A stretch of 64,000 nucleotides of DNA from an uncultured Pseudomonadales bacterium (GCA_964357975.1 CAYHNG010000002.1:4560-68559); one strand, 5' to 3'; shown: positions 9,238 through 57,086, numbered from the stretch's first letter. Numbers and translations are program-made. Notes: generated by a model not told the origin, from the letters alone.

Positions 9238-9276
9238 GGAGTGAGATTCCTCCACTACGGTCGGAATGACGAGTGG
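9238..9276. repeat. Family-A hairpin repeat, copy A1 (intergenic, 3' of groEL)
   Basis: GGAGTGAGATTCCTCCACTACGGTCGGAATGACGAGTGG, with internal GTGGAG/CTCCAC stem. Confidence 0.7.
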
Positions 9277-10902
9277 TTACATGCCCACGCCTTCCATACC
9301 TCCACCTTGAGGGATGATATCTTTCTTCTCTTCCGGAATGTCGGTAATAAGACATTCGGTCGTCAGAATCATACTGGCGACAGAAGCGGCGTTTTGCAGA
9401 GCAGAACGAGTAACCTTGACAGGATCAAGGATGCCGGCTTTAAGCATATCTTCAAACTCAAGGGTGAGAGAATTAAAACCGTATGAAAGGCTTTTGTTTT
9501 CTTCAACCTTTTTGACAACCCAACCATCATCGGACCCGGCATTTTTGGCTAACCAACGAAGAGGTTGTGAAAGAGATTGTTTGACGATCTCAATACCAAT
9601 TTCCTCGTCCGAGTTATCAGCCTTGATACTTTTCAAAGCTTGACCGGCGCGGATCAGGGCAACTCCACCACCGGGAACGATACCTTCGTCGATGGCGGCT
9701 TTGGTAGCCCCAACAGCGTCTTTGACGCGCTCTTTGAGCTCGTTGAGTTCGACCTCTGTAGCGGCACCAACTTTAATAACAGCCACACCACCGGCGAGCT
9801 TGGCAACCCGTTCGGCCAATTTATCTTTATCGAATTCGGAAGTAGATTTCTCTAACTCGTGACGAATTTGATCAAGACGAGCCTTGAGAGCTTTTTTATC
9901 TCCCTTTCCACCAATAATCTGGGTATTATCCTTGTCGGACCAAACTCGATCGGCTCGTCCGAGATCTTCGACAGTGACCGAGTCCAGTTTCCGGCCGGTA
10001 TCCTCAGAGATCAAAGTTCCGCCGGTGAGAATGGCGATATCTTGGAGAAGGGCTTTACGACGATCTCCAAAGGCCGGTGCCTTGAGAGCCAAGATATTGA
10101 AAGTGCCACGCATCTTATTCACAACCAGTGTAGCGAGAGCTTCTCCATCGATGTCATCGGCAATAATGACTATATTTTTGCTGACCTTCATGGTGTTCTC
10201 CAAGAAAGGGAGGAGATCGCTAATGGCGGATATTTTCTGGTCACAGATAAGGATATAGGGATTTTCGATAACCGCTTCCATATTTGCCGGGTCGGTAACA
10301 AAGTAGGCAGAAGCGTAACCTTTGTCAAACTGCATACCATCTTTGTGCTCGATCTCGAATTCCATACCTTTTGATTCTTCAACGGTAACGACGCCATCGC
10401 GGCCAACGAGTTTGAGAGCCTCGGCGATCTTGGCGCCAATCTCCGGATTTTGAGCCGAGATAGTGGCAACAGACTGCCAATCGCCTTCAGAAAGATCGGT
10501 TTTTATTTTTTGCAACTCTCCCACAATAGCAGTAACTGCTTTGTCGATACCTCTCTTCATCTGCATGGGGTTGGCACCGGCAGTAATATTTTTCATTCCG
10601 GCCAAGACAATTTGTTGAGCCAAGAGAGTAGCGGTAGTGGTTCCGTCTCCCGCTATATCGTTGGTTTTACTGGCGGCTTCTTTGACGAGCTGAGCTCCCA
10701 TGTTTTCAAAAGGATCTGCGAGCTCGACTTCTTTGGCAACGGAGACACCGTCATGAAGGACGGTAGGAGCACCCCACTTTTTATCAATAGCAACGTTTCG
10801 TCCTTTGGGTCCAAGAGTGGTGACTACGGCTCTGGCTAATTTATTGACACCACTTACTAATTTGGTACGGGCTTCTTCGGCAAAAAGTATTTGTTTGGCC
10901 AT
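9277..10902 (-). CDS. groL: Chaperonin GroEL
   Basis: Full-length GroEL with AVKAPGFGDRRKA, GGGVALI and a C-terminal GGM tail. Confidence 0.95.
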
Positions 10903-10933
10903 ATGTTTTTGGTTATTGGTTATTAGTTAATAG

Positions 10934-11242
10934 TTATTTGACTGTGGCGAGAATGTCATCGAATTTGAGAAATTGATATTCGGTATCACCGATCAGAACC
11001 TCGTTACCACCCCATTTTTTGTAGAGGACAGTGTCCCCTGCTTTGGCAGGAGAGCCTATTTCGACACCTCGATCGTTGATTAACTTACCACCGGCGGCGA
11101 GAACTGTGCCGTATTGAGGTTTCTCCTCGTGTGAGTCAGGAAGATAAAGTCCGGAGGCGGTTTTCTTCTCTTGCTTGGCGGGTTCGACCAAGAGAAAGCC
11201 TGGTGCTGGTTGTAATTTTTTGACGGTAAGGGTATTAACCAT
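10934..11242 (-). CDS. groS: Co-chaperonin GroES
   Basis: Typical 10 kDa chaperonin sequence immediately upstream of groEL. Confidence 0.9.
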   Translation of the reverse strand: MVNTLTVKKLQPAPGFLLVEPAKQEKKTASGLYLPDSHEEKPQYGTVLAAGGKLINDRGVEIGSPAKAGDTVLYKKWGGNEVLIGDTEYQFLKFDDILATVK

Positions 11243-11302
11243 ATTTTGTTAGAGTTAATTGATAAAGATTGATCAAGGAGACTGGTTGAGTATATCAGAA
11301 AA

Positions 11303-11360
11303 ATAGCAATCAACCACCTCGACTGCTATTTTAAAAACTAAATGATTTTTTTGTCAAGAC
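11303..11360 (-). promoter_or_regulatory. groES promoter with CIRCE-like HrcA operator
   Basis: On the minus strand: TTGACA-18-TAAAAT, immediately followed by inverted repeat TAGCAATC-N9-GACTGCTA (CIRCE geometry, 7/9 + 7/9 match to TTAGCACTC-N9-GAGTGCTAA). Confidence 0.45.
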
Positions 11361-11372
11361 CCTCGTCTCGGC

Positions 11373-56300: not shown

Positions 56301-56465
56301 GCCACAGGTGACACCAACCGGCGGGCCGGGATTTGGTTCCGATGGAGATGAGGATGGTGAGGGTGATGGTGTAGGTGGTGGTGGAGGGGGGGCGGCTAGA
56401 ATGACCTTATCCAGAAAGAAATATAGAAAAATAAATATTGAGACAATAAAAACAAATTTCTTCAC
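53376..56465 (-). CDS. Large secreted Cys-rich protein (about 1030 aa): poly-Pro linker, Cys-rich domains, C-terminal lysozyme/SLT-like segment (tentative)
   Basis: Start preferred at the GTG at 56465, giving MKKFVFIVSIFIFLYFFLDKVILAA signal peptide then PPPPPPTPSPSPSSSP. The track TTG start at 56561 would overlap pilin gene 1 by 64 nt. C-terminal VLAVMLHEGAFNRSF...GGAMPIADGQ has a weak SLT-like look. Confidence 0.45.
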   Translation of the reverse strand: MKKFVFIVSIFIFLYFFLDKVILAAPPPPPPTPSPSPSSSPSEPNPGPPVGVTCGNTMCLAGEVCIKYPMDLDLHCVPQSIIDDPITPIGDNPDVPEDCWKQLGSQNGIFPPNSSCWNHFQNTQVDIMQYERTCIYEPIAHYTAKRYKNSLSPSIDQPFTKCGVGGAAPDGTPAPGGTDPECLIAMLVYTDVREAETGSYGPSPDTEASYSADFIAQNYLYTSLFGRPMDLSDSYDPQNNAGNDGHPTREAYRTYWRLLPASNQANLRSFVLNMANKDQIDNINFDFVDRNGLKKKTDFKKLYNALSKQVILFWHWPFIRVGCLVDYPVCPEYAQATESLKPMFQELRELALDLDLGFLADTAILAYEAAISAFGNDLDGPYAAFVPLDFNGTRSYIVKKKDEKEESYYGDYPWAPYLVDEDNAGRYGTNKPGLTNVSRESVPYVGAIYQGLLSPKFGMFPALQPQWIVDKYASPSGISDYRIGNTLLSLPEVKLAQKGFLERVKEETIAIVTNPFGWLWNKVTDLFTNDELKKVGYTENEIDNLNEKVKDGYANITCPLPVSYHLIAPKTAAGDRGDPNQRPADDHHQVLSIRGDKLSWNYDPQCHPPTEKEKCDDNGHCWIEYGVCPINEWEGRYKDQKSGQCCRMRWTVEGISHGKTLNVLNNPKHTDIKETVANNDQYSFYKMILPDGVDKTVNASIDAPIARHFVSYRVDGVDAGATSTGPNGNSDILNPAEPINRVNNLAQDSMHLLQNCWTVPKELQNSPRCYLLPTPTPPVVCSTDLSFLKGGSCKLCNTDKITQFTRYVHESQVPEKIPKTLQDILETVGSTFSVPPSSVLAVMLHEGAFNRSFLTWTDANAKEWAICGGAMPIADGQMCDPAMYSAEACSSSGSCNISIAGFGWRPYYFWEGEGEIANWTAVQKIDPTRTKENISPCNLLDAAAATAKALSRGAAYLPPTVTSDTCFELPMTNTSIPGSCSAWTDATVLQSHISYAGYCPETGKNGIYPPLDTYKEDVLDPYHTFSCGQ

Positions 56466-56497
56466 TGAAACTATTATACTTTGTATCGGGTGAGAGT

Positions 56498-56854
56498 TTA
56501 GGTGCCAAATTGGGTAACCTTGGCACCGGTAAAGTTCTCGATGAGAACTAAGGCCAGCCAAACCACCGCGAGGAGAATCAAGCCAATAACGGCCCAGGTA
56601 AACATGGAATAGGCACTGGCGACTGCTTTGGGTTCGGCGCCGGCGGAGATCAAACGAATTCCGGCCATAATGATTATTCCGACAGCAACGAGAGCCAATA
56701 GGGCAGGGATGGGTTGAAGAATGTTTTTAAAGAGACAGGTGATACCTTGTATCGAAGCGACATCGGTAGCATCGACTCCAGCAACATTTTGACCAACACA
56801 TTCTCCAGTCCAATTACTGGCGGCATAGACTTGGGAGACGAGTTGGAAGGACAT
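56498..56854 (-). CDS. VirB2/TrbC-like pilin paralog 1 (divergent, 2 Cys)
   Basis: Leader MSFQLVSQVYAA|S, two hydrophobic helices, loop ISAGAEPKAV. Confidence 0.5.
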   Translation of the reverse strand: MSFQLVSQVYAASNWTGECVGQNVAGVDATDVASIQGITCLFKNILQPIPALLALVAVGIIIMAGIRLISAGAEPKAVASAYSMFTWAVIGLILLAVVWLALVLIENFTGAKVTQFGT

Positions 56855-56903
56855 AAATATATTTTACATTGAATATTTCGGATTGTATATTTTTTTCTTG
56901 GAT

Positions 56904-56997
56904 GGTTCGAAGTGCGCAAAATATCGTACTCGACCTCCGTCCCTCGAGTACGAGTGCGGATCCGCTCCGTGCGAAATTTTGCTTGCCCTTCTGCACC
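56904..56997. repeat. Family-C direct repeat, copy C1 (about 95 bp, nested palindromes)
   Basis: GGTTCGAAGTGCGCAAAATATCGTACTCGACCTCCGTCCCTCGAGTACGAGTGCGGATCCGCTCCGTGCGAAATTTTGCTTGCCCTTCTGCACC, about 93% identical to C2. Contains GTACTCGA...TCGAGTAC and GCAAAAT...ATTTTGC stems. Confidence 0.75.
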
Positions 56998-57027
56998 ATT
57001 TGGTAGTCATAACAAAAACCGCCTGAC

Positions 57028-57086
57028 GGTGGAGTTTTTGTATGAGATTGCTTCAGCTCGAATACGAGATTCGCAATGACGAAGTG
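57028..57086. repeat. Family-A-like repeat, copy A10, with adjacent weak terminator hairpin (3' of pilin gene 2)
   Basis: CCGCCTGACGGTGGAGTTTTTG then GAGATTGCTTCAGCTCGAATACGAGATTCGCAATGACGAAGTG. Confidence 0.5.

Follow-up and report, generated by a model that had tools for sequence, protein, structure and literature searches.

The 64,000-nucleotide (nt) stretch of DNA considered here (the window; GCA_964357975.1 CAYHNG010000002.1:4560-68559), deposited as part of an uncultured Pseudomonadales bacterium, carries 13 full copies and one partial copy (35228-35262) of a short hairpin-forming repeat, several of them read in frame inside essential genes. The explanation that we prefer, and to which we give a probability of roughly 70%, is that these repeats are the Collierbacteria branch of the class of elements known as CGTC-tagged REPs or NTS-like repeats, with a GIY-YIG nuclease of the Ssn type as partner. 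What is new is the lineage, which belongs to the Candidate Phyla Radiation (CPR), a form of the element that published motifs miss, a high translated fraction with insertion hot spots and a polarity that extends chromosome-wide.

Structure of the repeat

A covariance model was built from ten aligned copies (alignment A1) with a single 5-base-pair (bp) stem, and when the window was searched with filters off it recovered 13 copies at E-values of 9e-11 to 0.03, with no other match at E<1. Other searches of the window pointed the same way: 10 sites match the 15-nt head GGAGTGAGATTCCTC with <=3 mismatches where 2.2 are expected (shuffle maximum 6, n=100), the tail GGTCGGAATGAC has 16 matches where 4.7 are expected, and a repeat finder returned an 8-member family together with an inverted pair. 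A genome-wide search with such a model had been proposed in a first-pass annotation of the window; the model was run on the window, and the relatives were scanned by pattern.

On the top strand the consensus is (G/A)TGGAGTGAG-ATTNC-interior-GNAAT-GAC(G/A), which on the opposite strand reads (C/T)GTC-ATTNC...GNAAT-C-TCACTCCA. Following the CGTC strand, the element comprises an unpaired GTC head, the ATTNC/GNAAT stem with an interior that is either a variable hairpin or a nested palindrome and, directly after the stem, an invariant C followed by the tail CTCACTCCA. All five positions of the stem are paired in 10/10 aligned copies (100% of cells) and the changes within it are compensatory, one position being T-A in five copies, G-C in three and C-G in two, and another having two pair types. 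The interior ranges from 12 nt in the short form, where a 2-bp apical stem covaries (CC..GG versus CG..CG), to ~78 nt, with inner stems of 2-8 bp. Most copies in related genomes have the form ATTGC-CAC-(6-8 bp hairpin)-(C/T)TC-GCAAT, and across 101 distinct copies the sequence of the inner hairpin varies whilst its pairing is kept. The folding energies of single copies are unremarkable (z of -1.5 to +0.5 for the short forms), and it is covariation, not folding stability, that makes the case for structure.

That these were hairpin-forming short repeats had been recognised in the first-pass annotation, but the GTGGAG/CTCCAC stem that it named is paired in 72% of cells and the conserved stem is ATTNC/GNAAT. 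The long forms with an added hairpin module that it described were borne out, a nested second palindrome (CCCGCCTGCA...TGCGGG) being found in copies J and K and also in G1 (copies are lettered as in Table 1). A pseudoknot formed by TGGAG/CTCCA pairing was rejected, only 72% of cells being paired and the pairing being lost in the CTCGA subfamily, and readings of the flanks as a kink-turn, a hammerhead or a tRNA-like minihelix gave no fit on inspection.

Assignment to the CGTC-tagged repeats

The CGTC-tagged REPs of Di Nocera et al. (2013) have an unpaired CGTC or TGTC tag, with TGTC or CCTC allowed as variants, a stem that starts with A-T and a short tail that is mostly CCA; they include the dRS3 repeats of Neisseria and the Rickettsia palindromic elements (RPEs) RPE-4 and RPE-6 (PMC3733652). 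Intragenic copies are documented, some of them in tRNA synthetase genes, and no dedicated transposase is known (PMC3733652). Chenal et al. (2025) described the Neisseria NTS, CGTCATTCCCGCGMAVGCGGGAATCYRG, with the pattern CGTCATTCCCGCG..GCGGGAATCYRG, and SsnA, a GIY-YIG protein of 94 amino acids (aa) which binds and cuts the NTS as single-stranded DNA (ssDNA) only, and on that strand only, the C directly after the palindrome being critical for binding and the 3 nt before the palindrome for cutting (PMC11893778). Homologues of ssn across phyla are flanked by Ssn-related motifs (SRMs) (PMC11893778), and in both Neisseria and Wolbachia Ssn binds hairpins as ssDNA, on the CGTC strand only, and cuts a few bases upstream.

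Set against these descriptions, 13/13 window copies end in GAC(G/A) on the top strand, which reads CGTC (9) or TGTC (4) on the opposite strand, and stem pair 15-66 is A-T and pair 16-65 T-A in 10/10 aligned copies. The positions that govern binding and cutting by SsnA are invariant here (columns G14, A15, T16 and G37, A38, C39 of alignment A1). The 9-nt tail ends in CCA, and the tails beside ssn genes are CCAG/CCAT or CTATA. With the CGTC-tagged REPs (PMC3733652) the element shares the CGTC/TGTC tag and a stem that opens with two A-T pairs, and it resembles them in the CCA at the end of its tail, as well as in the occurrence of copies near the 3' ends of open reading frames (ORFs) and of some within genes, tRNA synthetase genes included. 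With the NTS/dRS3 repeats and SsnA of Neisseria (PMC11893778) it shares the (C/T)GTC head, a palindrome of the ATTCC...GGAAT type with an invariant C after it, flanks that give it an orientation and, in relatives of the window, a small GIY-YIG gene lying between inverted copies.

A scan of a genome collection found the GGAGTGAG-tailed form at at least 115 loci, among them many from Collierbacteria, Woesebacteria and Daviesbacteria and others from Bacteroidota, Alphaproteobacteria and Dialister; viral contigs gave a single match only. CGTC-tagged REPs have been described in five phyla, CPR not included (PMC3733652), and no report of the element in CPR or Collierbacteria was found in the literature searched. 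The first-pass suggestion that it was unreported for this lineage holds to that extent, but the class of element had itself already been described.

The candidate nuclease partner

A motif scan combined with tblastn of all fetched loci revealed a 97-aa GIY-YIG ORF (Pfam PF01541, E=1.3e-14) in the locus L016. Such a gene is present in three Collierbacteria-type loci, L016 having been found via the element and L117 (on a 790-kb contig) and L124 via the protein, and in all three inverted copies of the element lie on both sides of the gene within ~60 nt. The layout is one of 1-4 CGTC-first copies no more than ~60 nt upstream and 1-3 inverted copies just downstream, and a GIY-YIG gene flanked by a like element was also seen in a Flavobacterium (L055) and in a member of the Bacteroidales (L041). 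Residues Y9, Y20 and E67 of the protein, as read off its sequence, are spaced as are Y6, Y17 and E64 of SsnA. Homologues number at least 7995 at E<=1e-5 among the best 8000 matches, those at 60-65% identity coming from Betaproteobacteria and other CPR groups; so close a likeness to the betaproteobacterial proteins suggests that units of ssn and repeat have been transferred horizontally. The partner of the repeats is probably a single-domain nuclease of this kind, of ~97 aa. The pairing of an Ssn nuclease with hairpin repeats would then extend into the CPR, and the published search motif would be one that misses whole branches of the repeat family.

The arrangement recalls that of the REP/REPIN-RAYT systems, with their short hairpin repeats, conserved unpaired tetranucleotide, single-copy enzyme gene flanked by repeats, recognition of ssDNA and long vertical persistence at the same sites. 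However, the head is CGTC and not GTAG, the flanked gene encodes a GIY-YIG nuclease and not an HUH/Y1 enzyme and, unlike that of RAYT, GIY-YIG chemistry has no covalent intermediate for strand transfer. No RAYT/IS200 partner was found among the subset of window ORFs scanned. In L117 a truncated IS200-like Y1 transposase ORF (14094-14528; Pfam E=2.4e-7, profile positions 49-121 only) lies 4 kb from the GIY-YIG gene.

A number of considerations weigh against placing the repeats in the CGTC-tagged class with an Ssn partner. The published repeats have stems of 8-9 bp with loops of 4-5 nt, and CGTC-tagged REPs mostly occur as head-to-head dimers, whereas copies here are mostly single and have a 5-bp outer stem, an internal loop and a modular interior, which contains a nested module or a hairpin that varies. 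The tail differs from the CYRG of the Neisseria NTS, and the published SRM pattern HGTCWYN(0-2)YYVSBRHN(0-5)WNVSBRGN(0-2)RNCYNB gave zero matches on both strands of the window. NCBIfam offered no informative model for the GIY-YIG protein, whose membership of the Ssn nuclease family cd10448 is putative. A tblastn search of the window gave no ssn-like gene, and the additional 15 kb of flanking sequence (~79 kb in total) held neither such a gene nor further copies of the element, and it is for this reason that, for the genome of the window itself, we infer the Ssn partner. GIY-YIG enzymes cut DNA and do not rejoin it, so the enzyme alone leaves the multiplication of the copies unexplained. The relatives were partly a selected sample, in that loci found via the element have a copy density that is biased upward (orientation is unaffected by this). 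Finally, the C-rich strand of the chromosome carries the rRNA genes (PMC7143001) and 68% of coding sequence, and the G-rich strand carries dnaA and dnaN.

Host lineage and chromosome asymmetry

The best matches of the RnpA and valyl-tRNA synthetase (ValRS) of the window are from Candidatus Collierbacteria, a member of the Microgenomates group of the CPR, and exact matches of its proteins assign the window to an assembly from Hainich H41 groundwater. The locus L016 comes from a metagenome-assembled genome (MAG) that is labelled Pseudomonadales, and because two further contigs of that MAG (L036, L100) and one of a second such MAG (L013) are 69-77% identical to the window at the DNA level, with the same genes including dnaA, the label is wrong. 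Contigs of the mislabelled MAGs cover dnaN as well as dnaA. A series of 'uncultured Pseudomonadales' MAGs (CAZUFH01, CAYGCQ01, CAZPFY01; L002, L004, L013, L015, L016, L025, L036 and others) are evidently mislabelled Collierbacteria of this kind. The genome is very compact, at roughly 1 Mb and ~90% coding.

Kadnikov et al. (2020) found that in Collierbacteria, Beckwithbacteria and Ch65 a single strand is G-rich over the whole chromosome, and proposed that replication is one-directional (PMC7143001). GC skew in the window is positive from 1 to 64000, with no switch of sign at the rnpA-dnaA locus, in agreement with that asymmetry.

Strand polarity of the copies

The orientation of copies and their position relative to genes were scored with a strict pattern, in which the 5-bp stem was obligatory, over 597 kb made up of the window and 73 Collierbacteria-type loci. 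The GGAGTGAG strand lay on the G-rich strand in 107 of 113 copies (95%; binomial p ~5e-25), and therefore the Ssn-sensitive CGTC strand lies on the C-rich strand. The polarity was concordant in 69/73 loci, and of the six discordant copies two resemble spurious matches to the pattern and a third comes from a locus of near-zero skew. In the complete genome MFAS01000001 the pattern matches, which lie between 40 and 552 kb and to either side of dnaA, are on one strand in 8/8 cases. Loci from outside the CPR showed no bias of orientation relative to local GC skew (47 versus 42; the 8-kb skew is a weak proxy here) and had orientations that were mixed within 8 kb, and the polarity thus appears to be specific to the lineage. 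This near-absolute polarity coincides with the one-strand G/C asymmetry, so far unexplained, of Collierbacteria, Beckwithbacteria and Ch65.

As regards genes, 42% of the 113 copies were inside ORFs, compared to a published 2% for the NTS of N. meningitidis, and 38 copies, in which all frames are used, passed a stricter read-through test; at the same time copies were strongly enriched in the ~10% of sequence that is non-coding. Neither the 42% intragenic fraction nor the 95% polarity was found in the literature searched. In-gene copies were in genes of the C-rich strand in 37 cases and of the G-rich strand in 8, against a gene background of 385 and 178, and this 37:8 ratio is the prediction of a fixed polarity plus filtering by stop codons. 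In five cases a gene on the G-rich strand ends at the TGA of the element itself.

These data bear on the proposal that the repeats are selected RNA elements, REP-like 3'-end hairpins which stabilise or terminate transcripts and of which the in-gene copies are by-products. E. coli REPs act in this way (PMC12306157, PMC3733652), compensatory change preserves the stems, 34/62 intergenic copies on the G-rich strand are <=30 nt from a stop codon and copy L occupies the place that a canonical terminator hairpin has in the related locus L083. However, intergenic copies lie near the stop codons of genes in either orientation, so that orientation tracks the strand of the chromosome and not transcription, a large part of the copies is within coding sequence and the hairpin is not followed by a U-tract. 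Furthermore, G-U pairs are alike on the two strands (44 versus 38), SsnA is inactive on RNA (PMC11893778), and Rfam at gathering thresholds found only tRNA-Cys in the window and no family that matches the element. The bottom strand folds better by 1.7 kcal/mol on average, which is not decisive as between RNA and DNA. A function in RNA is, on this evidence, distinctly improbable as the explanation of the family.

Returning to repeats that are targets of an Ssn nuclease, their polarity would be likeliest to come from coupling to one-directional replication, and there are two routes by which this might occur: a copy might be lost when its cleavable strand is the one exposed as ssDNA, or insertion might itself be strand-specific. 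A tentative extension, which we consider possible and no more probable than that word implies, is that the Ssn/hairpin system is polarised chromosome-wide, the nuclease-sensitive strand being kept on the C-rich strand of a chromosome apparently replicated in one direction, and that it provides strand-specific self-protection or discrimination of ssDNA. If this were true the system would be coupled to replication or to the uptake or transfer of ssDNA, with the repeats acting as, or at least recording, a discrimination system; the orientation of the element would be an independent marker of the direction of replication, and essential proteins would at the same time regularly gain new loop and linker peptides from the elements. 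The polarity would offer a handle both on whether replication is one-directional and on whether Ssn activity at exposed single strands shapes genome architecture.

Copies read in frame inside genes

Seven full copies and the partial copy G1 lie in continuous ORFs and are translated in frame. The genes concerned are rnpA (G1 and G2), valS (D), a nucleotidyltransferase-like gene (C), a PrgI-like gene (I and J) and an ORF with TrwB-like and NUDIX parts (B and B2), and the predicted peptides include SVIPSAVGADGTRRGRSHS, GVRLPRHSVPRNDG and, from copy C, PRHFDRVKRVEKSHS. Translation confirmed all five in-frame copies that had been listed in the first-pass annotation, from which B and B2 were missing.

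RnpA provides the clearest example. The window protein has 150 aa, compared to a profile of 108 positions, and its insert is made up of two elements. In the alignment distant orthologues, of 108-117 aa, have nothing at this site, and Collierbacteria orthologues have 10-70 aa of unrelated sequence at the identical site, between FT(L/I)V.AP and RFSILLSKK, so that lengths span 108-179 aa with differing inserts at a single site. The inserts are translated palindromes, of this and related kinds (VIPT..EVEES, SSLRGG..DVAIS, VIASEARQS, QGQALKGTN), and in the DNA each of three genomes has a combination of elements of its own. In L027 (at ~1080-1160), and also in P0003, P0016 and P0017, the RnpA loop has an unrelated palindrome, TTCAAGGCCAGGCCTTGAA, which gives the peptide QGQALKGTN. 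Since other Collierbacteria thus have an unrelated palindrome in the same loop, the site is a hot spot for several repeat families. An AlphaFold model made from the orthologue alignment has a core with a confidence (pLDDT) of 80-93, whilst residues 38-82, the insert, are unstructured with a pLDDT of ~50; compared with solved structures of RNase P proteins, the core gives target-normalised TM-scores of 0.81-0.84. As modelled, RnpA keeps its core fold and accommodates the insert in a low-confidence loop.

The other sites are of a similar nature. ValRS has a modal length of 683 aa, compared to 718 in the window, and copy D falls in the linker between the catalytic domain, which ends at aa 570, and the anticodon-binding domain, which begins at aa 625. 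Amongst ValRS orthologues the window element is also present in one (P0045, from locus L048), others have the variants LPRHAGLINQTTTPRND and GLPRFEYETRND and most are without an element. Copy C is in a non-conserved linker of ~25-30 aa between two conserved blocks, and because the linker is of near-equal length in homologues that do not have the element the copy is better described as a replacement than as a net insertion. B and B2 are in a 1159-aa ORF (12082-15561, minus strand). In this ORF a TrwB/VirD4-like ATPase is joined to a NUDIX domain by a low-complexity linker, rich in Pro/Thr/Ser, that holds the two copies, and its low-complexity C-terminal tail overlaps ORF 11373-12410 by 328 nt; it could be a genuine fusion, or else two genes joined artefactually by read-through.

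The alignments show the in-gene segments to be lineage-specific inserts, derived from the element, at variable loops and linkers; the alternative that had been raised for RnpA and ValRS, of conserved ancestral sequence, was not borne out. The translated repeats would be a steady source of hypervariable loops, with hot spots such as the inter-domain linker of ValRS and the beta2-beta3 loop of RnpA. It has also to be considered whether in-gene copies go untranslated, being removed from the mRNA or bypassed by the ribosome. All that speaks for this possibility is that the copies are structured and are found in essential genes, and it is hardly credible in view of the open frame that is kept through differing inserts in >20 RnpA and several ValRS orthologues and of the occurrence of copies in every frame and in either orientation with respect to the mRNA. 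The two rnpA genes that appear to be split are accounted for by a contig end (P0022) and a miscalled GTG start (P0024), the frame being continuous. More generally, the elements have effects on annotation, in that they break assemblies, with contig ends inside them, lengthen ORFs and mislead start-codon calls.

The element resembles the RPEs in being a palindromic repeat that lies in frame in the housekeeping genes of a small-genome bacterium and adds surface peptide segments, and in-frame insertion at structurally tolerant sites, as in the RPEs, is found for the window copies in the alignments, the translations and the RnpA model. RPE-1 differs, being 100-150 bp long and of another sequence family. 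To our knowledge neither a strand polarity nor a nuclease partner has been reported for RPEs. The parallel with these elements that had been drawn in the first-pass annotation is upheld, since RPE-4 and RPE-6 are members of the CGTC-tagged REP superfamily, whose head and stem rules are followed here, a link that rests on the CGTC-repeat classification (PMC3733652). The read-through in rnpA and valS is likewise real, but to call such tolerance unusual was an overstatement because in-frame REPs in housekeeping genes, including those for tRNA synthetases, are documented in other phyla.

Persistence and spread of the copies

Comparison of individual sites between relatives gives some indication of how copies are maintained. 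At the valS site the elements of the window and L048 are 39/40 identical, compared to 73% identity over the alignment of the whole gene. At the nucleotidyltransferase site the element is present in four genomes, the window and L069 differing by a single compensatory change of T-A to C-G and the remaining two having different variants, and at the site downstream of the pilin gene (copy L) the window and L083 have different variants that are placed differently relative to the terminator. Judged from these sequences, the pattern suggests constraint or conversion between copies and is unlike neutral decay.

It might be argued that the repeat is a purely selfish miniature transposon, of the RPE type or that of a miniature inverted-repeat transposable element, with its transposase elsewhere and no link to Ssn. 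Copies are indeed many and dispersed, with nested insertions, in-frame survival would fit purifying selection on random insertions, and some copies are present or absent between relatives: a block of ~150 nt that holds H is absent from L035 and L027, and a block of ~770 nt (34222-34994) made up of E, F, orf172 (no Pfam match) and a terminator-like hairpin is an insertion relative to L027, where a single element is present at this position, between a Bro-N gene and rnpA. The Y1 fragment of L117 would supply a transposase in one related genome, but it has no flanking elements, and no transposase was found among the scanned subset of window ORFs. The ends of the element, TGGAGTGAG and GACG, are asymmetric and are not inverted repeats of one another, so that terminal inverted repeats are absent, and the sites compared showed no target-site duplication, with the reservation that none could be aligned to a clean empty site: the intergenic flanks of H are too diverged, the C and D sites are filled in all relatives and the rnpA palindromes differ in each genome. 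Orthologous elements that are so much more alike than the gene around them would not be expected of decaying junk DNA, and the close bracketing of ssn genes by the element is a further objection. This explanation is therefore unlikely, and the term selfish, which was used in the first-pass annotation without a view of the probable nuclease partner or of strand polarity, is unproven.

If the repeats are instead partners of an Ssn nuclease, the Collierbacteria enzyme would act on the copies, which would probably be disseminated and kept uniform by recombination or gene conversion among them, stimulated by nicks. Copies would survive either just past stop codons or in genes where the frame remains open and the protein tolerates 12-35 extra residues, and those surviving within genes would sit in disordered loops or inter-domain linkers and simply be translated.

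Copies in the window

The copies are listed in Table 1. All eleven of those in the first-pass annotation were found at, or within a few bases of, the positions that it had given, although the tandem pair formed by B and B2 had been overlooked. A tail fragment that it placed near 4142 is present as sequence, but is too short to be confirmed and has no match to the covariance model.

Table 1. Copies of the repeat in the window (E, E-value; peptides are predicted translations)
Copy	Position	Strand	Description
A	9232-9276	+	Short form, intergenic; 58.4 bits, E=8.8e-11
B	12968-13012	+	Short form, CTCGA subfamily; in frame, ORF 12082-15561(-); peptide TDSSFRAESRNLPPSV
B2	13013-13077	+	ATTGC type, inner CCGCC...GGCGG hairpin; in frame; peptide TPVIAHQSASGGRSETTKQSPT; 22 bits, E=0.0075
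C	17196-17248	+	In frame, nucleotidyltransferase-like gene 17037-17879(-); peptide GPRHFDRVKRVEKSHS
D	25474-25524	+	In frame, valS 23674-25830(+); peptide GVRLPRHSVPRNDG
E	34250-34294	-	Intergenic; sole inverted copy, tail-to-tail with F
F	34297-34341	+	Intergenic, downstream of orf172 (34381-34899, minus) and its terminator-like hairpin
G1 (partial)	35228-35262	+	In frame in rnpA; peptide SVIPARRVLAGL; folding z = -4.4
G2	35266-35331	+	Long form, in frame in rnpA 34996-35448(-); peptide SSVIPSAVGADGTRRGRSHSTQ
H	35607-35651	+	Intergenic, between rnpA and dnaA
I	45557-45601	+	In frame, Pro/Thr-rich linker of PrgI-like gene 45197-46201(-); peptide TPVISTVVEKSPSIT
J	45701-45805	+	Long form, nested hairpin modules; in frame, PrgI-like gene; peptide PSVIPTDLPADTKAQLLQAGAEAAGTRVEESHSTT
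K	52710-52799	+	Long form, probably intergenic
L	57033-57086	+	ATTGC type, CTCG-AATA-CGAG inner hairpin; intergenic
Possible tail remnant AAATGACG	4135-4150	+	Between convergent genes; unconfirmed, no model match

Three of the intergenic copies (K being probably so) end close to stop codons. The GACG end of A is 5 nt from that of groEL (9277-10902, minus strand; identified by Pfam), K ends 5 nt from that of a YafQ/ParE-like toxin gene (52800-53072, minus strand) and is upstream of the likely ATG start (~52677) of ORF 50893-52731, and L ends 6 nt from that of a type IV secretion system (T4SS) pilin gene (57088-57429, minus strand). Among the in-gene copies it is only in D that the top strand is the sense strand. 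The partial copy G1 consists of a TGGAGA head, a perfect 10-bp hairpin (CCTGCAAGG/CCTTGCAGG) and an AATGACG tail.

Other repeats in the window

A second in-frame repeat family has a unit of ~16 nt, GAATCAAGAACTCAAG, which is translated as ELKESRTQGIK and occurs at 24937-24990, inside valS at a variable site after ~aa 425, and at 59539-59592, inside ORF 59303-60415; the peptide is found at two different variable sites in ValRS orthologues. Repeats of GATCTCAGATGTCAGATGTCAGATCTCAGATT (family D4) lie at 21189-21225, 21585-21635 and 21950-22000, at the start of and within the TsaD gene (21232-22296). A direct repeat of 94 nt (D6), with copies at 56904-56997 and 60429-60522 that are 94% identical, brackets five paralogous T4SS pilin genes (57088-59273). 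A distinct palindromic element headed by TGGAGACC is in frame upstream of dnaA at 35690-35775, and alignment of orthologues suggests that the true start of DnaA would be near 35775 and not at 35697.

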